A stretch of DNA of 64,000 nt, taken from assembly GCA_937877655.1 (NCBI GenBank), contig CALFJC010000176.1:4607-68606 (forward strand), written 5' to 3'. The number at the start of each line of letters is the position of its first letter. Positions within the stretch are counted from its first letter, which is position 1. The translations under genes and the position numbers were made by a program. This stretch comes from an uncultured Selenomonadales bacterium. Lineage in GTDB: Bacteria > Bacillota > Negativicutes > Selenomonadales > Selenomonadaceae. Positions 12,632 through 61,977 of this stretch are shown in pieces. The notes under the pieces were generated by a model. It searched no databases and was not told the origin of the DNA. It was given only the letters and a program-made list of their open reading frames with translations.

Positions 12632-14590
12632 ATGATTCAGCGAGTCTTGGGCGGGCGTTATGAATTGGAAGAGAAAATCGGCAGCGGCGGCATGGCGGAA
12701 GTTTACAAAGCTCACGACAGACTCCTTTCTCGTCCCGTAGCGATAAAAATTTTACATGCGGAATATCGTTCGGACGTAGAATTTATTGAAAGATTTCATC
12801 GCGAGGCAAAAGCGGCGGCGCGCCTTTCGCATCCGAATATTGTCAGCATTTATGATGTCGGAGTTGCCGGCAACGATCATTATATCGTTATGGAGTATGT
12901 TAAGGGCGATACTCTCAAGAAAAAAATGCAGGACGAAGGACCGCTTGAGCTTTTGACGGCAACTTCAATCGCAAAAGACATTGCAAACGGCTTGACGCAC
13001 GCGCACGCAAATAATATCGTTCACTGCGACATCAAGCCGCACAACATTTTAATGACGGAAGACGATCACGCAAAAATTACAGATTTTGGAATTGCCCGCG
13101 CAGTCACGGAATCGACGCTGACTTACGGCGGGAGCGTTGTCGGCTCCGTTCATTATTTTTCGCCCGAACAAGCTCGCGGCGGCGCGATAACTCCCAAGTC
13201 CGACGTTTATTCTTTGGGGATTGTGCTTTATGAAATGTTGACAAATAAATTGCCGTTCACGGGCGACAATCCCGTTGCAATAGCGATGAAACACATTGAA
13301 GAGGATCCGATTACTCCGAGCCGTTATCGCCCGCAAATTCCGCCGATGCTTGAGGCTATCGTCTGTCGAGCAATGAGTAAAAGTCCCGAAATTCGCCCGT
13401 CGAGTTTTGAACTTGTCCAAGAACTTTCAAAAGTCGAATCGGCATTGAGTGTAACGCAGAGAAGCGACCCCGATGCCACAAAACGTTTGCCGCGAACAGA
13501 AATTCCCCCGCGCCGCACAGATCGTCAAGGTTTGGGAACTCAAGGCAACAATCAAGAAGAATCCAAAAAGCCCGAAGTCAAACAGAAACCTTTTTACAAG
13601 ACGAAAACTTTCATGGCGATGATGTTTTTCGTTTTGGTAATGGGCTTCGGCGTAGGGATTTTTGCGGCGTTCGGAAAAGTTTGGAACACGGAAAATGTCG
13701 TAACGGTTCCCGACGTAAAAGGCAAGCAACTTGCATTGGCGCGACAAATTTTGGAGGACGGACATCTTCGCGTGAACATTGCCGAAACTTACGACGCAAC
13801 TGTTCCTGCGGGGCAAGTTGTTTCGCAAGACCCCGACTTCGGCAAGACGGTTAAAAGCGACAGAGTTGTTACAATTTACGTCAGCAAGGGCGGCGAAGAA
13901 ATCGAAATGCCCGATCTTGCAGGTTTGGCGAAATCCGCCGCGCTTGAAAGACTGCAAAAGCTCGGCTTGAATGTGGGCAGTGTTTACGAAAAAGATTCTT
14001 CAAGCGAACCGGGAACTGTTTTATCTCATGACCCGACGACGGGCACGAAAATTATTCGCGGACAAGCGATTGATTTAATCGTTTCTCGCGGCGGCGGCGA
14101 ACCCGACAATAAATCTGATAATAAAACCGACAATAAATCCGACAATAAGTCTGACAATAAATCCGACAATAAAAAGGCTGACGAACCGAAATCCGAAAAA
14201 AAATTTGCTCGCGTCCCCGACGTTTACAGTTCGGGGCTCGGCTCGGCTGAAGACAGCATAGAAAATCGCGGGCTTTATGTCGGCTCCGTCACTTATCAAG
14301 AAAGTTCGCAGGCGGAAGGCACGGTTATTTCTCAATATCCCTCGCCCGACGTTGAAGTTGAAGTCGGATCTTATGTCGATTTGGTAATTGCAAGTCGTCC
14401 TGCTCCGCAACCCGAACCGGAGCCTGAACCTGTCCGTGAGCCCGAACCTTATCATGAACCGGAACCTTATCGCGAACCCGAACCTGTCCGCGAACTCGAA
14501 CCGCAACCGCAATCGAACGATTTTCCCGATATTCCCGTTCAAAATGATGTGCCGAGCCGCGAAGACAACGATCAATCTAAAGGGAGATAG
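12632..14590 (+). CDS. prkC: Ser/Thr protein kinase with three extracellular PASTA domains (PrkC/PknB type)
   Basis: Hanks motifs GSGGMAEVYKA, VAIK, HCDIKPHN, DFG and SPEQ. One TM segment (FMAMMFFVLVMGFGVGIFAAF). Three PASTA units. A (DNKS/T)x6 linker at about 14101-14172 and an EP-rich tail at about 14400-14520. Confidence 0.92.
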   Translation: MIQRVLGGRYELEEKIGSGGMAEVYKAHDRLLSRPVAIKILHAEYRSDVEFIERFHREAKAAARLSHPNIVSIYDVGVAGNDHYIVMEYVKGDTLKKKMQDEGPLELLTATSIAKDIANGLTHAHANNIVHCDIKPHNILMTEDDHAKITDFGIARAVTESTLTYGGSVVGSVHYFSPEQARGGAITPKSDVYSLGIVLYEMLTNKLPFTGDNPVAIAMKHIEEDPITPSRYRPQIPPMLEAIVCRAMSKSPEIRPSSFELVQELSKVESALSVTQRSDPDATKRLPRTEIPPRRTDRQGLGTQGNNQEESKKPEVKQKPFYKTKTFMAMMFFVLVMGFGVGIFAAFGKVWNTENVVTVPDVKGKQLALARQILEDGHLRVNIAETYDATVPAGQVVSQDPDFGKTVKSDRVVTIYVSKGGEEIEMPDLAGLAKSAALERLQKLGLNVGSVYEKDSSSEPGTVLSHDPTTGTKIIRGQAIDLIVSRGGGEPDNKSDNKTDNKSDNKSDNKSDNKKADEPKSEKKFARVPDVYSSGLGSAEDSIENRGLYVGSVTYQESSQAEGTVISQYPSPDVEVEVGSYVDLVIASRPAPQPEPEPEPVREPEPYHEPEPYREPEPVRELEPQPQSNDFPDIPVQNDVPSREDNDQSKGR

Positions 14591-14806
14591 TCCCCCTTTT
14601 TTCTAAAGTGGGCACGCAAAACCATCTCGGCGTCTCGGCAACTTTCAAGTTCATTTTTAACTTTGTGTATTGAACAAACTTTTCTTTTGCCGCCCCAAAA
14701 GAAAAGTTTGCAAAAGAAAAGGGGCTCCAACCGGCAAGAAAACATCCTGTTTTCGTTGCCGGCGGGCGCACATCCTTGTGCGCCCGTGTCTTCGCCACCC
14801 GCTGTA
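14591..14806 (-). repeat. Multi-hairpin intergenic repeat, copy A (short variant, minus orientation)
   Basis: It contains CCCCCTTTTTTCTAAAGTGGG (HP4), CAAACTTTTCTTTTG..CAAAAGAAAAGTTTG (HP3), CCGGCAAGAAAACATCCTGTTTTCGTTGCCGG (HP2) and GGGCGCACATCCTTGTGCGCCC (HP1). It is the reverse complement of copy D. Confidence 0.85.
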
Positions 14807-14814
14807 AGCTTTTT

Positions 14815-14841
14815 CATTACGCATTACGAATTACGCATTGC
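14815..14841. repeat. Heptad array (CATTACG CATTACG AATTACG CATTGC) between repeat copies A and B
   Basis: Direct reading. Confidence 0.7.
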
Positions 14842-14972
14842 AAAAAGAAAAGGCTCCTCGCAGGGGCGTTTGTCTCTCGTTATTCGGAGTAGCAAATAAC
14901 CTTTGCCGTGTGTGCCGGCAATAGAAACATCCTGTTTCTGTTGCCGGCGGAGCCGTCATCCATGACGGCTCC
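14840..14972 (-). repeat. Multi-hairpin intergenic repeat, copy B (long variant, minus orientation); the terminal hairpin has a replaced stem and doubles as a + strand terminator
   Basis: It is the reverse complement of copy C across about 110 nt, including the roughly 60-nt insertion. At the HP1 position it has GGAGCCGTCATCCATGACGGCTCC followed by T6. Confidence 0.85.
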
Positions 14973-15037
14973 TTTTTTCGTCCTTCATTGACTTTCTCCA
15001 AGTGACAAGCACTTTTTCGACAACTGTGATATAATTT

Positions 15038-15559
15038 TCAATCAAACAAACTCAACTGACCGCGAGGAATAGTTTTTTTCGGAGAAGAATTTTTTTGCAA
15101 CGGAGGATTTTTCAAAATACCGCGCTGAAATTTTTCTGCCGTCGAACGAGCAAGTTCATCGCAACGTTCATTGAAAAAATTTCCCGCATGCCCTTTCACC
15201 CAATTAAAATTCACATTGCGCGACGAAATTAATTCGTCAAGCGTAAGCCATAAATCTTTGTTGAGCACGGGATTTTTGGTTGAAGTTTTCCAGCCGTTTC
15301 TTTTCCATTTGACGAGCCAGCCGTTTGTAAAAGCATTTTTGAGATAACTGCTGTCCGTAAAAAGTTCCGCGCGGTCGCCCGCCGAAATTTTTTCCAAAGC
15401 TTTAATCGCCGCCGTAAGTTCCATGCGATTGTTGGTTGTATGTTCTTCGCCGCCGAAAAGTTCTTCGCGATTATTTTTTTCGTCAACGATAACTGCCGCC
15501 CAACCGCCCGCGCCCGGATTCCCCAAACATGAACCGTCCGTATAAATTTTAAAATTCAT
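15038..15559 (-). CDS. rnhA: Ribonuclease HI
   Basis: MNFKIYTDGSCLGNPGAGGWAAV, TNNRMEL, TDSSY and a C-terminal GHAGN..NERCDELA. GGAGG lies 8 nt before ATG 15559, so the track start at 15601 is too long. Confidence 0.9.
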   Translation of the reverse strand: MNFKIYTDGSCLGNPGAGGWAAVIVDEKNNREELFGGEEHTTNNRMELTAAIKALEKISAGDRAELFTDSSYLKNAFTNGWLVKWKRNGWKTSTKNPVLNKDLWLTLDELISSRNVNFNWVKGHAGNFFNERCDELARSTAEKFQRGILKNPPLQKNSSPKKTIPRGQLSLFD

Positions 15560-15586
15560 TTTCTCGCCTCCGAAAGGAAATTTGTA

Positions 15587-17365
15587 ATGGATATTCTCCA
15601 AGAAAAATTGAAAACGTTGCCCGCCGCGCCCGGCGTTTACCTCATGAAAGATATTCGCGGGAAAATTATTTATGTCGGCAAGGCTAAGGTTTTAAAAAAT
15701 CGCGTCCGCCAATATTTTCAATCGAATAAAAATCTCGGCGCGAAAGTCAAGGCAATGGTCGCCAAAATCGTCGACTTTGAAACAATCGTCACGTCAAACG
15801 AAGTCGAGGCTCTGATTTTGGAATGCAATTTGATTAAAAAATATCGCCCGCGCTACAATATCAGTCTCAAGGACGATAAAAGTTATCCTTATCTCAAAAT
15901 CACTGCCGAAGAATTTCCGCGAATAATTTTGACGCGGCGCGTGATTCATGACGGCTCGCGATATTTCGGACCTTACACGAACGGGCTTGCCGTCAAGGAA
16001 ACTCTTCAACTTTTAAGAAAAATTTTTCCGCTCCGAACTTGCAGAATTTTTTCAAAGCGTCCGTGTTTGGAGTTTCACATTAAACGATGCCTCGCGCCCT
16101 GTGCAAACAAAATTTCTCGCGAAGATTATATGCGCTTTGTCAATGCGGCAGAAAAATTTTTGGAAGGACACACCGCGCAGGTTGAACGCGAAATTTCTGC
16201 ACAGATGACGGCGGCGGCGGAGGCATTGAATTTTGAACAGGCGGCGAAGTTCAGAGATATTTTGTCGGCAATAAGAAAAGTTACGGAGAAACAAAAAATC
16301 GTAACCGATTTGGGCGACGCGGACGCAATAGGCTTGGCGCGGCTTGACAGCGAGACTTGCGCACAGATTTTTTTTATTCGAGACGGAAAAGTTGTCGGGC
16401 GCGAAAATTTTTTATTAAACGGCGCGGCGGACGAATCGGACGCGCAGGCAGTCACGGAATTTATAAAGCAATATTACAGTCGGGCGCAAATTTCGGCGAC
16501 AGAAATTTTATTGCCCGTCGCATTGGCGGAAGACGATTTAAAAATTTTGGCTGAATGGCTCGGCGCGAAAATTTTGGAGCCGAAACGCGGCGTGAAACGT
16601 TCGCTGGTTGAAATGGCGATTGAAAACGCGCAGAAATTTTTGTCGGAAGAATCTGCGCGGCGACAAATAAAAAATGCACAGACAAAAGGCGCGGTCGAGG
16701 AGCTGAAAAAATTTTTGAACTTGCCGAAACTCCCGCGCCGCATGGAGTGCTTTGACATTTCGCATATTCAAGGCGCGGAAACTGTAGCGTCAATGGTTGT
16801 GTTTGAAGACGGCGTGCCCGATAAAAAAAGTTATCGCCGCTTCAAAATTCGTTCGACGGAAGGCAAGCCCGATGATTTTTTGTCAATGCGCGAAGTCACG
16901 AGCCGCCGATATGAGAAACTTTCCGAAGAAAATTTGCCCGACTTAATAGTTATCGACGGCGGAATCGGGCAATTAAATTCTGCGCTTGAAATAATTCGCG
17001 GCGCGGGACATAAAGTGCCCGTCGTCGGCTTGGCAAAACAATTTGAATTGATTTTCGTTGAAGGCGCGTCAATCCCCGTCGAATTGCCCAAAGACAGTCA
17101 AGCGTTAAAACTTCTGCAGAGAATCCGTGACGAAGCCCATCGATTTGCGATAACTTATCACAGAAAACTTCGGCGGGCACGAAATTTGAAATCGGAATTG
17201 GACAATGTGGCGGGCATCGGAGCGAAAAGACGCGCCGAGCTGTTTAAAAAATTCGGGACGATAGAAAAAATAAAATCGGCAACGGTTGAGGAACTTGCCG
17301 CCGTGCCGAGCATGAATCGCGCCGCCGCCGAAGCCTTGAAAAGGCAATTAGGAATTATGAATTAG
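15587..17365 (+). CDS. uvrC: Excinuclease ABC subunit C
   Basis: GIY-YIG N-terminus (PGVYLMKDIRGKIIYVGKA...YF), UVR domain (FEQAAKFRD) and a C-terminal HhH pair. 592 aa. Confidence 0.95.
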   Translation: MDILQEKLKTLPAAPGVYLMKDIRGKIIYVGKAKVLKNRVRQYFQSNKNLGAKVKAMVAKIVDFETIVTSNEVEALILECNLIKKYRPRYNISLKDDKSYPYLKITAEEFPRIILTRRVIHDGSRYFGPYTNGLAVKETLQLLRKIFPLRTCRIFSKRPCLEFHIKRCLAPCANKISREDYMRFVNAAEKFLEGHTAQVEREISAQMTAAAEALNFEQAAKFRDILSAIRKVTEKQKIVTDLGDADAIGLARLDSETCAQIFFIRDGKVVGRENFLLNGAADESDAQAVTEFIKQYYSRAQISATEILLPVALAEDDLKILAEWLGAKILEPKRGVKRSLVEMAIENAQKFLSEESARRQIKNAQTKGAVEELKKFLNLPKLPRRMECFDISHIQGAETVASMVVFEDGVPDKKSYRRFKIRSTEGKPDDFLSMREVTSRRYEKLSEENLPDLIVIDGGIGQLNSALEIIRGAGHKVPVVGLAKQFELIFVEGASIPVELPKDSQALKLLQRIRDEAHRFAITYHRKLRRARNLKSELDNVAGIGAKRRAELFKKFGTIEKIKSATVEELAAVPSMNRAAAEALKRQLGIMN

Positions 17366-17424
17366 GAATTAGGAATTAGGAATGAAAAACCTATTCCCTA
17401 GTTCCTAGTTCCTAGTTCCTAATT
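17345..17424. repeat. Palindromic heptad array (AATTAGG-type arm / CCTAGTT-type arm) forming a hairpin between the convergent uvrC and nagA
   Basis: The left arm has five heptads and the right arm five, with a GAAAAA loop. The uvrC stop (17363-17365) and the nagA stop (17412-17414) both lie inside the arms. There is no canonical T-run. Confidence 0.85.
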
Positions 17425-18542
17425 AAATTCCCGTTTACAAAAGTCTTCTTAATGTTAAAGTCGTCGTCAAAGATTGTGATGTCCGCCGCCTTGCCGACTT
17501 CCAAAGAGCCCGTCTTGTCGAAAATACCGAGTTCGACGGCGGGATTTTTTGTTACGAGTTCGACGCCCGCCGCAATATCGGTTGAAGTGTTTTCGCAGAA
17601 ATTTTTTAAAACGTTGTTCAAAGTTGCGACACTGCCCGCAAGTGTTCCGTCTTCCAACGTTGCGACATTTCCTTTGACGAAAACTTTTTGTCCGCCCAAT
17701 TCGCTTAAACCGTCGCCCAAGCCGCAAGCCCGCAATGAATCTGTTATCAAAATAATTTCACTGCGCGGCTTGACTTTGGCAACAATTCTCTGCGCGGCGG
17801 GGCAGACGTGAACATTATCGGCAATGAGTTCGACAATCGCGCTTGAATCAAAAGCCGCGCCGACGACGCCGGGTTTTCTGTGATGAAGTCCGCTTTGGGC
17901 GTTGAAAAGATGCGTTATGTGATTTGCGCCGCGAGCAATCGCCGCCATTGCAATTTCGTAAGTAGCCGCGCTGTGACCGATTGAGACGATGATATTTTTT
18001 TCGCGACAACGATCGATAAAATCAAAATCAATTTCTTCAGGCGCAACGGTAATGATTTTAATCACGTCGAAGAAATTTTTTATCAAAGAAAAATCTGCGC
18101 GGATAATATTTTCTTCAGCCTGCGCGCCTTTAAATTTTTTGCTGATAAAGCCGCCTTCCATATTGGCTCCGAGAATTTTTGCGCCTTGAGAAAAATTTTT
18201 CCCGATTCTGATTCTCTTCAAAGCCCGATAAATTTTTTCAAGCGGCATGGTCATTGTGGTTGGCAAAAAACTTGTGACGCCCGTCGAAGGCAAAAACTCT
18301 GCAAAATTTTTCAAAGCGTTGATGTTTTCGTCCATAGTATCGAAACCTGCCGCGCCGTGAATGTGAATGTTTATGAAACCCGGCGACACGAAATTATTTT
18401 CCGCGTCGATAATCTCCGCGCCTTCAATCGGCTTGCCGACGGAAATAATTTTCTCATCGAAATTCAAAGCCGAGCCCGCGCAGATTTTAAAATTACCATT
18501 CGAGTCGGGCAGAATCAATCGCCCGTTAATCAAAGTCATCAT
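17412..18542 (-). CDS. nagA: N-acetylglucosamine-6-phosphate deacetylase
   Basis: Amidohydrolase HxH (FINIHIHGAAGFD) and NagA-like core (ITHLFNA, HHR). GGAGG (18555-18551) lies 8 nt before ATG 18542. Confidence 0.85.
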   Translation of the reverse strand: MMTLINGRLILPDSNGNFKICAGSALNFDEKIISVGKPIEGAEIIDAENNFVSPGFINIHIHGAAGFDTMDENINALKNFAEFLPSTGVTSFLPTTMTMPLEKIYRALKRIRIGKNFSQGAKILGANMEGGFISKKFKGAQAEENIIRADFSLIKNFFDVIKIITVAPEEIDFDFIDRCREKNIIVSIGHSAATYEIAMAAIARGANHITHLFNAQSGLHHRKPGVVGAAFDSSAIVELIADNVHVCPAAQRIVAKVKPRSEIILITDSLRACGLGDGLSELGGQKVFVKGNVATLEDGTLAGSVATLNNVLKNFCENTSTDIAAGVELVTKNPAVELGIFDKTGSLEVGKAADITIFDDDFNIKKTFVNGNLIRN

Positions 18543-18575
18543 AAAAATTTCCTCCATAAAAAATTATCAAAAACA

Positions 18576-18846
18576 GCGGTGAAAAAAGGGCGCACAGGAC
18601 GTGCGCCCGCCGGCAACAGAAACAGGATGTTTCTATTGCCGGCACACACGGCAAGGGTTATTTGCTACTCCGAATAATGAAGAACAAACGCCCCCGCGAG
18701 GTGCCCTTTCTTTTGCAACTTTTCTTTGGGCAAGCAAAGAAAAGTTGATCCTATAAATAAAAAATTATTTTCAAACTCAATCGAAGTGGCGAGCCGCCGA
18801 CAATGACGAAGGTTTTGCGAACCCACTTTTTAGAAAAAAGGGGGGC
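18576..18846 (+). repeat. Multi-hairpin intergenic repeat, copy C (long variant, plus orientation)
   Basis: GCGGTG...GGGCGCACAGGACGTGCGCCC, CCGGCAACAGAAACAGGATGTTTCTATTGCCGG, a roughly 60-nt insertion, CAACTTTTCTTTGGGCAAGCAAAGAAAAGTTG, a spacer, then CCCACTTTTTAGAAAAAAGGGGGG. Confidence 0.85.
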
Positions 18847-18986
18847 AATAATTCTTCAGGTAAAAGGATTTTTCGACGCAAGGTTGAAATTTCTTTTTGA
18901 AAACAGCAGAAAAGTTCTTTATTTTTTTTTCGGCGGCAATTATAATGCGAAAAGCTTTGCAAATAACATTCGAGGTGATTTTTTTC

Positions 18987-43385: not shown

Positions 43386-43394
43386 TTTCAAAAT

Positions 43395-43426
43395 TCATTC
43401 CTAATTCCTCATTCCTAATTCCTAAT
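43395..43426. repeat. Heptad array, single arm (CATTCCT AATTCCT CATTCCT AATTCCT AATT)
   Basis: Direct reading. Its last unit runs into the -35 box of the valS promoter. Confidence 0.8.
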
Positions 43427-43454
43427 TGACTTTAAGGCGGCGGCAGTTTATTAT
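43426..43454 (+). promoter_or_regulatory. Sigma-70-type promoter for valS-folC
   Basis: TTGACT (43426-43431), 17-nt spacer, TATTAT (43449-43454). Confidence 0.6.
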
Positions 43455-46127: not shown

Positions 46128-47424
46128 AGACGCTTTAAAATATCTGGATTGGCTTTGCATTTTCGGAGTAAAAGAAGGGCTCGAAAGAATCAAGGAATTG
46201 ACAGCCGCATTGGGCGAACCGCAAAATTTTTATCGGACGATTCACGTTGCGGGCACAAACGGCAAAGGCTCCGTCTGCGCGATGCTCGCCGAAATGTTGA
46301 AGGCTTCGGGCTTGAAAGTCGGCTTGTTTACTTCGCCGCATTTGGAAAGTTATTGCGAACGAATCCGTATTTATAACGGAAAAAATTTTGATGCTAGAAA
46401 TGCGCAGGCATTTCGTACCGACGCGGCAAATGACTACGATAATTTTCAAAATCCGAGCGCGACCGCTGTTTGCGCACTTTTTAAAAGTGGTGATAGAAAT
46501 ATTTCCGAAAAAGATTTTGCCGAGATGATTTTCCGCGTGAAAAATTGCAACGTAAATGCGACACATTTTGAGGTTTTGACTGCCGCCGCCTTTCTGTATT
46601 TTAAAGAACAAGCGGTTGACATTGCGGTTATCGAAGTCGGGCTCGGCGGAACTTTTGATTCTACGAACATTATCACGCCCGAAATTTCTGTTATTACGAA
46701 TGTCGCGCTTGATCACGAAAATATTTTGGGCGATTTGGAAAATATTGCGCGGAATAAGGCGGGCATTATCAAGGAAAATGTTCCTGTCGTGACAGGGGCG
46801 ACCGGCAAGCCGCTTGAGATTATCAAAAAAGTTGCCGCCGAAAAAAATTCTCCGCTATATGAAATAAATCCCTATAACCTAAAACCTATAACCTGTAACC
46901 TGAACCTGCGCGGCGATTATCAAAAATTTAATGCGGCGGTAGCGATAAAGGCGGCGGAGATTCTAAAGCTTGACAAGGCGGCGATTGAAAAAGGTTTGGC
47001 TGAAGTCGAATGGGCGGGACGTTTTGAAGTCGTCGAAACTTCGGACGGAGTTTTTGTGATTGACGGGGCGCACAATCCGCATGGCGCAAAGGCATTGCGT
47101 CAAGCTCTCGACAAAAATTTTCCGAGCGGCAAAAGAATTTGGGTTTTCGGCGCACTTAAGGACAAAAATTTTTCCGAGATGATAAAGATTTTATTCCGCG
47201 CAGATGATTTTGTTATCGTGACGCCGCCCGATTCTGAACGTGCCGCCTCAACCGAAATGCTTTGCAAATGTCTGCATGAAAATAAAATTCCCTGCGCGGC
47301 AGTCGAAAATAATTTTGATGCAGTCGAACTCCTGAAAAAATCTTCGGGCGACGTGAAAATAATCGCGGGTTCGTTGTATCTGATTGGTACGCTAAGGAAA
47401 TACATTGCGCTTGAGAAGAAGTAG
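46114..47424 (+). CDS. folC: Folylpolyglutamate synthase / dihydrofolate synthase
   Basis: Mur-ligase P-loop VAGTNGKGSV. valS-folC synteny. TTG 46114 gives an N-terminus (M)KIYEDALKYLD, typical of FolC. It overlaps the valS end by 14 nt. The track start at 46039 is too long. Confidence 0.88.
   Translation: MKIYEDALKYLDWLCIFGVKEGLERIKELTAALGEPQNFYRTIHVAGTNGKGSVCAMLAEMLKASGLKVGLFTSPHLESYCERIRIYNGKNFDARNAQAFRTDAANDYDNFQNPSATAVCALFKSGDRNISEKDFAEMIFRVKNCNVNATHFEVLTAAAFLYFKEQAVDIAVIEVGLGGTFDSTNIITPEISVITNVALDHENILGDLENIARNKAGIIKENVPVVTGATGKPLEIIKKVAAEKNSPLYEINPYNLKPITCNLNLRGDYQKFNAAVAIKAAEILKLDKAAIEKGLAEVEWAGRFEVVETSDGVFVIDGAHNPHGAKALRQALDKNFPSGKRIWVFGALKDKNFSEMIKILFRADDFVIVTPPDSERAASTEMLCKCLHENKIPCAAVENNFDAVELLKKSSGDVKIIAGSLYLIGTLRKYIALEKK
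46871..46908. repeat. Heptad array inside the folC reading frame (CCTATAA CCTAAAA CCTATAA CCTGTAA CCTGAA CCTG)
   Basis: Direct reading. It is translated as PYNLKPITCNLNL. Confidence 0.75.
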
Positions 47425-47582
47425 CGGTTGGCGAGTTCACGGGCGCACAGGACGTGCGCCCGCCGGCAACGAAAACAGGATGTTTTCTTGCCGGTCAAAC
47501 GCCCTTTTCTTTTGGCAACTTTTCTTTTGGGCGCAGCAAAAGAAAAGTTGTAAATCCTTCCACTTTTTGGAAAAAAAGGGGG
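47424..47582 (+). repeat. Multi-hairpin intergenic repeat, copy D (short variant, plus orientation)
   Basis: GCGGTTGGCGAGTTCAC, GGGCGCACAGGACGTGCGCCC, CCGGCAACGAAAACAGGATGTTTTCTTGCCGG, CAACTTTTCTTTTGGGCGCAGCAAAAGAAAAGTTG and CCACTTTTTGGAAAAAAAGGGGG. The last hairpin supplies the SD for the next gene. Confidence 0.85.
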
Positions 47583-47589
47583 CGAGAAA

Positions 47590-61711: not shown

Positions 61712-61913
61712 TTTTTGATTTGCATTGGCTGTTTAAGGAGACTAATTTTTTTCAAAAGTTTTAGTTGTATACTGCGTGTTACACGTGACACTCCCCACGC
61801 CTAAAGGCAGGGGCTTCTTATTTTAAATTAAATAATTTTGGTTTGGCTTTTGCCGCAAGGTCTGATGAACACTCGTTGCCCGGACATTAAAAAAAATCAG
61901 CAACGCGACGAAA

Positions 61914-61977
61914 CAATTAGCAATGTGCAATTAGTAATGAAAATTCATTGCTAATTACTCATTACTCATTACTAATT
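61914..61977. repeat. Palindromic heptad array (AATTAGC/AATTAGT arm versus CATTACT arm)
   Basis: CAATTAGCAATGTGCAATTAGTAATG aaaatt CATTGCTAATTACTCATTACTCATTACTAATT. Same unit type as the arms flanking the four-helix-bundle gene. Confidence 0.85.

Follow-up and report, generated by a model that had tools for sequence, protein, structure and literature searches.

The question raised by this locus is what kind of element places the same small set of hairpins at several intergenic sites, and why one of its copies should keep a hairpin while replacing the whole sequence of its stem. The 64,000-nucleotide (nt) stretch analyzed (the window) corresponds to C176:4607-68606 of the genome of an uncultured Selenomonadales bacterium (G000), a 3.03 Mb draft in 181 contigs, with 45% G+C and an estimated completeness of 100%. 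Comparisons within this genome and with related genomes indicated that the hairpin sets probably belong to a modular, lineage-specific repeat found in Selenomonadaceae that is non-autonomous and has the behavior of mobile DNA. The initial annotation had described a composite element at four places, and all four were found at about those coordinates:

14583-14846, minus strand: copy A, full-length form of ~225 nt plus a 5' heptamer array (nhmmer profile positions 2-228, E 4.6e-73)
14842-14978, minus strand: copy B, insert-bearing form without the box, 3'-truncated at the first CT tract
18574-18848, plus strand: copy C, insert-bearing long form
47422-47583, plus strand: copy D, short form that spans the whole distance from a Mur-ligase-family gene to a Wzy_C gene

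Every part named in that description (the box, the hairpins HP1 and HP2, the insert, the CT/GA trio and the hairpin HP4) was present, and a four-way alignment showed an order of parts common to all copies. A repeat finder matched B with C over 108 nt at 93% identity, with the ~45-60-nt insert included, and A with D over 83 nt at 90% identity.

BLAST searches with the four copies detected 183 merged loci in the genome, with E-values down to 1e-117 to 1e-39, that cover 26,781 nt or 0.88% of its length, and an iterated nhmmer profile returned 203 matches, numbers well above those expected by chance. Because 56 of the 183 loci are located at contig ends, the repeat is a main cause of the breaks in this assembly. 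Full-length forms like A (~225 nt) number about 55-73 depending on the cut-offs, insert-bearing forms like C (~270 nt) about 7-8, and the short forms of ~180 nt, like D, lack the AT-rich middle; partial or composite copies are also numerous. On the element strand, the 5' part consists of GAAAAGC, two to six seven-base units of the type AATKNGY (AATGCGT, AATTCGT, AATGAGT, AATTAGT and others, the last one being AATGAAA) and the box AAGATTTACAGCGGGTGGYGAAGACAC (GCGGGTGGYGA). The box is followed by HP1 with the loop A(N)GGAY, a single G, HP2 with the apex CAGGAUG and the optional insert. Next are a mini-hairpin of the GNRA type (GCCCC-GCGA-GGGGC), a CT tract, the hairpin HP3 and an optional AT-rich, or mid, region of ~60 nt, and the element closes with HP4 (CCCAC-TTT-AGAAA-AAAGGGGG), the consensus ending in AAAAAAGGGGG.

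An array of at least three seven-nt units was found at 54 of 148 element 5' ends. Tandem seven-nt arrays, mostly (AATTAGG)n, are common elsewhere: 657 arrays with at least three units were counted on both strands of the genome, against ~12 per Mb in shuffled sequence, and most stand alone, 54 being at the 5' end of the present repeat. Arrays within the window are located at 2276-2320, 2681-2713, 17340-17427, 43386-43433 and 61911-61977, and at one orthologous site an array alone in this genome corresponds to pieces of the element in a relative (L011 vs C111). Local clusters and near-identical tandem duplicates were seen at C139:51580-52447, C73:9872-10280 and C101:68489-69175; that on C139 includes two identical 238-nt copies located 381 nt apart.

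The constant part of the two 5' hairpins is the loop, not the stem. The majority HP1 stem is GGGCGCAC/GTGCGCCC, and other copies have GACCGCCC/GGGCGGTC, GGGGCGGC/GCCGCCCC, AGGCGCAC/GTGCGCCT or GGGCACAC/GTGTGCCC at the same position. At least six stem types were distinguished, every one a perfect helix, with the loop CA(N)GGA(Y)G in common. The stem replacement reported for copy B was genuine and preserved the structure; because the same stem type (GAGCCGTCA/TGACGGCTC) recurs on contigs C34, C131, C86 and C6, it is an alternative module in recurrent use and not the single compensatory event that it had seemed. In HP2 both the lower stem (CCGGCAA, CCCGCAA or CGCCGC) and the upper stem (GAAAACA, AGAAACA, TGAAACA, CGCCGC or TTGAACA) are exchanged. 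Counted with their closing pairs, the HP1 loops were CAGGACG (57), CATGGACG (49), CAGGGATG (11), CATGGATG (11) and CAAGGATG (9), and those of HP2 were CAGGATG (129) and CAGGAAG (6). Nearly all loops contain GGA (143 of 149 in HP1, 138 of 146 in HP2), including those on entirely replaced stems, and each hairpin has a stability of -17 to -20 kcal/mol.

A formal covariation count for HP1 and HP2 was carried out on 32 distinct copies and 23 pairs. The cells were paired in 93.9% of cases, against about 40% when the partners were slid, and both sides had changed in 13 of the 23 pairs. Cells with a double change numbered 75 against 17 in shuffles, none of 500 shuffles reaching 75, and one-sided changes through G·U were limited to two cells. 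Compensatory stem change is family-wide and extends beyond copy B. In HP1, HP2 and HP3, the best stems without gaps contained 3,920 Watson-Crick pairs, with G·U at 38 positions and A·C at 39. If selection acted on an RNA from one strand, G·U would be expected to persist and A·C to be removed; the counts show no such asymmetry. The selection on the fold proposed in the initial annotation was consequently borne out only in part: the stems are kept by compensatory change, while selection at the level of RNA found no support, the stems being near-perfect DNA palindromes with as many G·U as A·C. The stems behave as DNA palindromes and only the loops are strand-specific in sequence, a behavior that is compatible with an RNA role or with none. 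When the fold of copy A was compared with shuffles, both strands were far better (z = -5.4 for the element strand and -5.9 for the opposite one).

Whole-element analysis with RNAalifold on a MAFFT alignment recovered hairpin fragments only, and the hairpins were analyzed one by one. In the minimum-free-energy fold predicted for copy A, the 5' box is paired with the mid region; this putative long-range basal stem drew no support from covariation, the variants of the box and the mid region showing no compensatory pattern. HP1 had also been proposed to double as an intrinsic terminator. The scan did call it terminator-like on the plus strand in copy B, where GGAGCCGTCAT-CC-ATGACGGCTCC is followed by a T-run (14973-14978), and on the minus strand in copy C; the arrangement is a rare variant, as only 4 of 90 HP1 copies have the A-rich 5' flank needed for a terminator on the opposite strand.

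Mobility was assessed with an empty-site search in which the joined flanks of eight copies were compared with six close relatives. Single alignments ran across the junction for five of the eight (C18:16545, C106:13384, C63:11531, C38:32838 and C134:2311), which are absent at the orthologous sites of one to five relatives each, and the fetched sites were confirmed to be empty. The alignments showed that ancestral overlapping genes (TAATG, TTGCTTGA) were split by the element. At C106:13384 the relatives read AAAGGAAGAAACTAATGCTAGAAAAA, with a stop TAA that overlaps the ATG, and in G000 the element is located between a TAG and a new GAGGAG-N9-ATG. At C18:16545 the element split an overlapping nifS/nifU-like gene pair in which the TTG start was inside GCTTGA; the downstream gene gained AAGGAG and the upstream gene kept its length with a changed tail (RLE*). 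The ancestral Shine-Dalgarno (SD) sequence at C63:11531, AAGGAGGA, was inside the upstream gene and has decayed to TTGCGGCG, and a new TAGGAGG is found beside the heptamer array. The reverse case was also seen: the relative G006 has a mosaic element, a GGCCGTCATGGATGACGGCC hairpin plus HP3, where the flanks are separated by a 13-nt gap in C142 of G000. The repeat is gained or lost at individual intergenic sites, with ~200 copies here and few or none in close relatives.

In two relatives the flanks of one element mapped to different G000 contigs, each beside an element, which suggests rearrangement by recombination between copies or contigs left unjoined. The pairs concerned are L008 (G022), which corresponds to C176:~23148 and C113:~69392, and L009 (G023), which corresponds to C58:~6478 and C24:~7345. 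A multi-copy gene that abuts the HP4 end of three copies (C1:~45707, C89:~5750 and C136:~5583) was discarded as a candidate, since its C-terminal sequence, judged by eye, looks restriction-modification-like rather than transposase-like. The paralogues on C1, C89 and C136 end in FIE(E/D)KV..ME*, and two of them have identical flanks.

The placement of the copies relative to genes was determined from crude open reading frame (ORF) calls for the 73 full-length copies with two flanking ORFs. With plus taken as the direction of the element, the settings were:

flanks -,-: co-directional genes, element antisense, 26 copies
flanks +,-: convergent genes, 20 copies
flanks +,+: co-directional genes, element sense, 18 copies
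flanks -,+: divergent genes, 9 copies

The ~200 copies are found in both orientations. With a convergent downstream gene, the distance from its stop to the HP4 end is at most 20 nt in 32 of 46 full-length copies and at most 10 nt in 27 of 46; a same-direction downstream gene starts within 20 nt in only 3 of 27. Of the 26 antisense operon settings, 10 had a tight fit on both sides; of the 18 sense settings two did, and copy D is one of these two. In tightly packed operons the element is located exactly at the stop/start junction, usually antisense with the HP4 end against the upstream stop, and in split operons a fresh SD for the downstream gene is found at the heptamer end. The motif CTCC is present just beyond the 3' end in 26% of the copies, against a background of 3%. 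Its reading as part of a terminal hairpin was revised, as the empty-site alignments identified it in at least some copies as the ancestral SD of the downstream gene, left in the tail of the upstream gene.

HP3 is a part whose first description needed revision. It had been read as a trio of segments with mutually exclusive pairings. In a survey of 132 HP3 loci, the lengths of the T runs around a single C in the two CT tracts, and of the A runs around a single G in the purine arm, were recorded in the order tract 1/tract 2/purine arm:

HP3 (3,5)/(5,3)/(3,5): 31 copies
HP3 (4,5)/(5,3)/(3,5): 21 copies
HP3 (3,4)/(4,3)/(3,4): 19 copies
HP3 (4,3)/(3,4)/(4,3): 2 copies
HP3 symmetric (4,4): 30 copies

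CT tract 2 is the Watson-Crick partner of the purine arm. CT tract 1 is the mirror image of tract 2 and, in all asymmetric variants, corresponds to the purine arm in parallel orientation, with T against A and C against G; the direct-repeat arrangement required by an alternative hairpin was found in none of the 132 loci. Because tract 1 mirrors tract 2 in every asymmetric variant, and is not a copy of it, HP3 is a better fit to a triplex or H-DNA than to an alternative hairpin. The mirror rule is also obeyed in relatives and in other genera.

Judged from its sequence, HP3 could form a pyrimidine·purine·pyrimidine (Y·R·Y) triplex or H-DNA, with a parallel third strand and the order Y-Y-R. Designs of the Sklenar-Feigon type, in which the order is Y, short linker, Y, loop and R, permit an intramolecular pyrimidine-motif triplex, and in duplex DNA the two CT tracts, with 5 bp between them, would constitute a mirror repeat of the H-DNA type. 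At 9-11 nt the mirror halves are short for stable H-DNA, and no more than three or four independent changes probably underlie the HP3 variants. The base of the HP3 stem covaries over 4-5 bp (CTAC/GTAG, CAAC/GTTG and CTTAC/GTAAG); a single-strand triplex would need these 4-5 bp to be opened, as the linker is otherwise 1 nt. To our knowledge, no bacterial repeat with such a triplex module has been described. It is unlikely, though worth stating, that HP3 is a real triple helix, made up of one C+·G-C triple and ~8 triples of U·A-U or T·A-T, in a mobile repeat that also bears two CsrA-docking hairpins. If this were true, the triplex could act as RNA in the manner of a clamp of the ENE type (element for nuclear expression) that stabilizes the transcript, or as DNA in the form of H-DNA that promotes the copying or recombination of the element itself, and the family would be a mobile, self-stabilizing CsrA-binding cassette that rewires operon junctions across Selenomonadaceae.

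The distribution of the repeat was examined at several depths. BLAST detected pieces in 17 of 41 genomes, namely the genome under study and 16 of 24 relatives of the same genus, and none in 16 other families of the class; sub-modules were found alone in relatives. A covariance model of the box, HP1, HP2 and HP3 (R1) was then used to scan 76 genomes of the genus and 31 genera of the order. Matches were obtained in 61 of the 76 genomes, and the counts, capped at 45 by the scoring, ranged between 0 and at least 45; in the closest relatives by UvrC gene (uvrC) identity (82-85%) there were 4, 3, 1 and 8 copies, against 42 in G062. Across the order, R1 matched 5 of the 31 genera, all of the same family, so the repeat extends to four genera beyond its own, where the matches are weaker and full-length. 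In these other genera the HP1 loop A(N)GGA(Y) is kept, HP3 is nearly unchanged and HP2 has a different long stem with the apex CGGAUG, UGGAUG, GUGAUG or GUGA. Because the HP2 apex varies in this way, a single GGA loop is universal. An exact 21-mer scan of public contigs returned mostly chance matches outside Selenomonadales; the non-chance exact matches to the HP2 core were in records titled uncultured Selenomonadales, Selenomonadaceae or Mitsuokella.

Searches of Rfam gave no match in the window at gathering thresholds. At permissive thresholds the HP1-HP2 unit showed sub-threshold similarity to two families for which CsrA binding has been proposed in print, so that the earlier statement that no described family is recognizable needs revision. 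The best match was TwoAYGGAY (RF01731, clan CL00106) at 14915-14972 on the minus strand in copy B, with 30.7 bits against a cut-off of 43; the two hairpins of the model align to the HP1 variant and HP2 of this copy with the same 1-nt spacing. Bacillaceae-1 (RF01690) matched the opposite strand of copy C weakly, at 18591-18654, with 22.3 bits (E = 0.73) against a cut-off of 35. The highest TwoAYGGAY score genome-wide was 30.8 bits, below that required for membership, RF01731 gave no match against the loci of relatives and other genera, and the best score for RsmV, of the same clan, was 13.8 bits against a cut-off of 100, too low for membership of the clan. The strict motif AYGGAY is present in 60 of 149 HP1 loops (40%) and 2 of 146 HP2 loops, the remainder having AGGAY, ARGGAY or AGGAU. 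A CsrA gene is encoded in the genome (84.5 bits). The flagellin leader, inspected as a native CsrA-site calibration, had no comparable GGA-loop hairpin and was uninformative; its GGA motifs are located in a GAAAAATTTTTC palindrome and not in hairpin loops. In the same region (C157:1266-3000), a sense, 3'-truncated element directly precedes a small prepilin-like gene, which in turn is followed by the flagellin gene.

Weinberg 2010 (PMC2864571) presented TwoAYGGAY as a likely RNA, with occurrences in human gut bacteria, Gammaproteobacteria and Clostridiales. Gardner and Eldai (PMC4333381) put forward both TwoAYGGAY and Bacillaceae-1, the latter read on its reverse strand, as small RNAs (sRNAs) that bind CsrA. 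In Pseudomonas, TwoAYGGAY reaches up to 202 copies per genome, has extra hairpins and carries a 5' array of 5-6-nt tandem repeats; a mobile-like expansion was suspected, the function was left unresolved, and, in contrast to this extended form of Pseudomonadota, the versions from Bacillota are without the extension (bioRxiv 10.64898/2026.09.22.753630).

We favor the reading that the present element is a Negativicutes counterpart of TwoAYGGAY-type elements. Maintenance would concern the hairpins rather than particular stem sequences; the invariant loops most likely serve as contacts for a protein, and the spread would be due to an enzyme that acts in trans. Wherever it is transcribed, the GGA strand may present two closely spaced CsrA-type binding hairpins, and the element could titrate CsrA or bring a neighboring gene under CsrA control. 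That CsrA, acting on RNA, is the contact of the GGA loops is a tentative and somewhat doubtful proposal that draws on the presence of csrA, the match to the motif and what has been proposed in print. Several observations weigh against one or the other part of this reading. With respect to mobility, terminal inverted repeats, which the initial annotation had listed as a feature to look for together with target-site duplications, were not detected (the best 5'/3' alignment score was 5, against 6.2 with a standard deviation of 1.1 for shuffles), and no clear target-site duplication was seen in the five filled/empty comparisons, where loose resemblances between SD and start were present and the relatives are 15-25% diverged. 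A search for Y1 transposases, including the REP-associated tyrosine transposase (RAYT), with PF01797 gave 0 matches at E <=0.01 in the genome, while controls matched in 6 of 14 genomes; no family of ORFs of at least 150 amino acids had more than four copies; and plasmid and phage collections gave no match to the repeat. As a sign that there is no related autonomous element with the same ends, these absences are weak, because draft metagenome-assembled genomes can lose insertion sequences. Nearest neighbors among the copies are 88-96% identical, so that the copies are not very young. With respect to CsrA, the stems have no excess of G·U over A·C, no promoter-like site was found within or before the copies, the orientation between co-directional genes is mixed (41 antisense and 33 sense), the HP2 apex of several other genera is not GGA, and RF01731 had one match with E <=1 in the whole genome (30.8 bits) and none above the cut-off of 43.

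Some of these same observations are accommodated by an element that acts at the level of DNA, in which hairpins extruded from DNA that is supercoiled or single-stranded, together with iteron-like seven-nt arrays, would be recognized by a DNA enzyme, for example a recombinase or a nickase of the HUH type, that copies or moves the element; the GGA loops would then serve for recognition by this enzyme, with no tie to CsrA, and HP3 would be H-DNA. The near-perfect palindromes without strand asymmetry (3,920 Watson-Crick, 38 G·U and 39 A·C pairs), the near absence of one-sided G·U changes (two cells) and the equal folding of both strands (z = -5.4 and -5.9) are as expected for such an element, and iteron-like arrays, enzyme-recognized loops and H-DNA fit the perfect palindromes at least as well as the contact of CsrA with RNA does. 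The layout found here, short repeats in tandem beside a hairpin whose loop is invariant, is that of rolling-circle and HUH origins, the insertion polymorphism is established and the covariation of the mirror repeat fits H-DNA. Nevertheless, neither a Y1 (HUH) transposase gene nor a multi-copy candidate enzyme was found in the genome, the loop motif matches the published CsrA consensus, we know of no nick site that the GGA loop motif matches, and mirror halves of 9-11 nt are short for stable H-DNA; we regard this explanation as rather unlikely. Less probable still is a domesticated element similar to repetitive extragenic palindromic (REP) sequences, bacterial interspersed mosaic elements (BIMEs) or Correia elements that acts in cis by blocking exonucleases, by termination or insulation, or by re-supplying a stop and an SD, with an incidental likeness to CsrA sites. 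The preference for gene ends (20 convergent versus 9 divergent full-length copies, and the HP4 end within 20 nt of the stop in 32 of 46), the hairpin plus T-run terminators in B and C, the stop codon and SD that copy D gives, the new SDs at the heptamer end of split operons and the stable hairpins (-17 to -20 kcal/mol) all speak for it; yet HP1 is terminator-like in only 4 of 90 copies, the defining partner of REP, RAYT, was not found in the genome, and both the invariance of loops rather than stems and the extreme gaps in copy number between sister species are left unexplained. Independently transcribed sRNA genes acting as CsrA sponges and multiplied by ordinary duplication, with no mobile mechanism, are very improbable. 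The two GGA hairpins are ~28 nt apart, within the working site spacing of 10-63 nt of CsrA dimers, the CsrA gene is present, and TwoAYGGAY and RsmV belong to one Rfam clan, CL00106; the lack of promoter-like sites in or before the copies, their scatter (~200) over operon junctions and gene ends in both orientations, the precision of the insertions against the empty sites of congeners and the missing G·U signature of an RNA strand are all contrary to such genes.

The internal features of the copies in the window illustrate the modules described above. In copy A, which was found to run further 5' than first reported, into a seven-nt array, they are:

14815-14841, minus strand: seven-nt tandem array, AATGCGT AATTCGT AATGCGT AATGAAA on the element strand
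14792-14802, minus strand: box GCGGGTGGCGA
14764-14785, minus strand: HP1, stem GGGCGCAC / GTGCGCCC, loop AAGGAT
14731-14762, minus strand: HP2, two-part stem of 14-15 bp, apex CAGGATG
14675-14724, minus strand: HP3, hairpin 14675-14710 and upstream CT tract 14711-14724 (plus-strand numbering)
14583-14613, minus strand: HP4 CCCACTTTAGAAAAAAGGGGG and terminal hairpin GGGGGA-CTA-TCTCC

The HP3 of this copy is a mirror-plus-inverted repeat of the symmetric 4+4 variant. The TAG stop of a convergent PknB-like kinase gene (12632-14590) sits in the loop of the terminal hairpin. Copy B is an insert-bearing copy, as first described, with the qualification that it is truncated at the first CT tract; the truncation point directly abuts the start of the array of copy A, and similar head-to-tail composites recur in the genome. 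Its parts are:

14949-14972, minus strand: alternative HP1, GGAGCCGTCAT GG ATGACGGCTCC, apex CATGGATG on the element strand
14915-14947, minus strand: HP2, CAGAAACA / TGTTTCTA variant
14868-14912, minus strand: insert, common to copy C, with two extra small hairpins

The insert shared by B and C (14868-14912 and 18643-18689) starts with CACACACGGCAA, which can pair with the 3' arm of HP2, TTGCCGG, and would compete with the lower stem of HP2; it also contributes a GTTATT/AATAAC hairpin. The parts of copies C and D are:

18588-18608, plus strand: copy C, HP1
18610-18642, plus strand: copy C, HP2
18643-18689, plus strand: copy C, insert
18690-18704, plus strand: copy C, GNRA mini-hairpin
18705-18747, plus strand: copy C, CT tract and HP3
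18822-18845, plus strand: copy C, HP4
47422-47434, plus strand: copy D, box
47441-47461, plus strand: copy D, HP1
47463-47494, plus strand: copy D, HP2
47502-47550, plus strand: copy D, CT tract and HP3
47558-47583, plus strand: copy D, HP4/SD

The box of copy D contains the TAG stop of the upstream gene, and its 3' end, AAAGGGGG, is 6 nt ahead of the ATG (47590) of the Wzy_C (O-antigen-ligase family) gene. The position is correct for HP4 to supply the putative SD of this gene, as had been suggested.

ORF calls and Pfam placed copies A and B between the gene of the PknB-like kinase, which has PASTA domains (12632-14590, plus strand), and an RNase H gene (15038-15601, minus strand), and copy C upstream of an amidohydrolase gene (17412-18557, minus strand). 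The 3' end of the kinase gene has in-frame 12-nt and 18-nt tandem repeats (14100-14183 and 14398-14506), which encode a low-complexity tail rich in Pro/Glu and Asp/Asn/Lys, and a comparable PEPEP-type repeat region is found ahead of the element at C106:13384. The divergent rnhA-uvrC pair is kept across the genus, with a different gene downstream of rnhA in almost every relative (L025-L036). No empty orthologous site for A and B was definable, as the relatives have no kinase gene beside rnhA-uvrC; the kinase-rnhA junction with both copies appears to be specific to this genome.

TwoAYGGAY-type multi-copy elements are widespread. The present repeat provides a version from diderm Firmicutes (Negativicutes), and other genera of the family contain weaker relatives of it. 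Several genomes of those genera, for example G133, G184 and G179, are complete or near-complete and may be from cultured strains, which would make the CsrA idea testable at the bench. Sister species with 0 to ~200 copies amount to a natural experiment in which the enzyme can be sought by presence/absence profiling. The insertions between overlapping genes in which the SD was replaced show how repeats enter operons without killing them, and a triple helix is predicted from the mirror-repeat module. In practical terms, many contig breaks in this assembly, and apparently some rearrangement breakpoints, are explained by the repeat. What is new here is the host lineage, the seven-nt arrays, the operon-junction insertions with SD replacement and the mirror-repeat module, the overall logic being common to the TwoAYGGAY class.

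HP3 resembles H-DNA mirror repeats and the ENE-type U·A-U RNA triple helices in the order Y (Hoogsteen), linker, Y (Watson-Crick), loop and R, and differs from them in its 9-11-nt halves and, with the base pairs closed, its 1-nt linker. BOX/BIME-type mosaics and REP are modular, intergenic, hairpin-forming, high-copy and assembly-breaking. The present repeat is alike in its optional sub-units, its intergenic location, often just after stops, its stable hairpins, its hundreds of copies and its assembly breaks; it has no sequence relation to them, its genome is without RAYT, and its invariant part is the loop rather than the stem and GTAG foot. Miniature inverted-repeat transposable elements such as Correia or RUP are small, non-coding and insertion-polymorphic between relatives, and can supply regulatory signals to neighboring genes. 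All of this applies to the present repeat, but terminal inverted repeats, a clear target duplication and a recognizable parent insertion sequence do not. Bacillaceae-1 shares the two-hairpin unit, the CsrA-like loops and a host among Firmicutes, and its model matches the strand opposite GGA, as PMC4333381 predicts; the score is below the cut-off, and Bacillaceae-1 is not reported as a high-copy dispersed repeat.

The closest likeness in our searches was to TwoAYGGAY. Both have two GC-rich hairpins 1 nt apart with GGA-centered loops (CAUGGAUG / CAGGAUG), a multi-copy state with strongly differing numbers between related genomes, and extra lineage-specific hairpins. A short tandem array is found at the 5' end in both, so that the repeat shows the multi-copy state with strong variation in number and the array described in the 2026 preprint, and Csr/Rsm binding has been proposed and a mobile-like spread suspected for both. 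The differences are a score below the cut-off, with only 1 of ~200 copies reaching even 30.7-30.8 bits, the 5-nt AGGAU loop of HP2, a basal stem that is unsupported, and 5' units that are 7-mers (AATKNGY) instead of 5-6-mers (GMTBT). In addition, the 3' part of the present repeat (mirror-repeat HP3, AT-rich region and HP4/SD) has no counterpart in TwoAYGGAY, and its host is a Negativicutes family. Taken together, these comparisons favor, on balance, the assignment of the present element to the TwoAYGGAY class as a mobile-like repeat.

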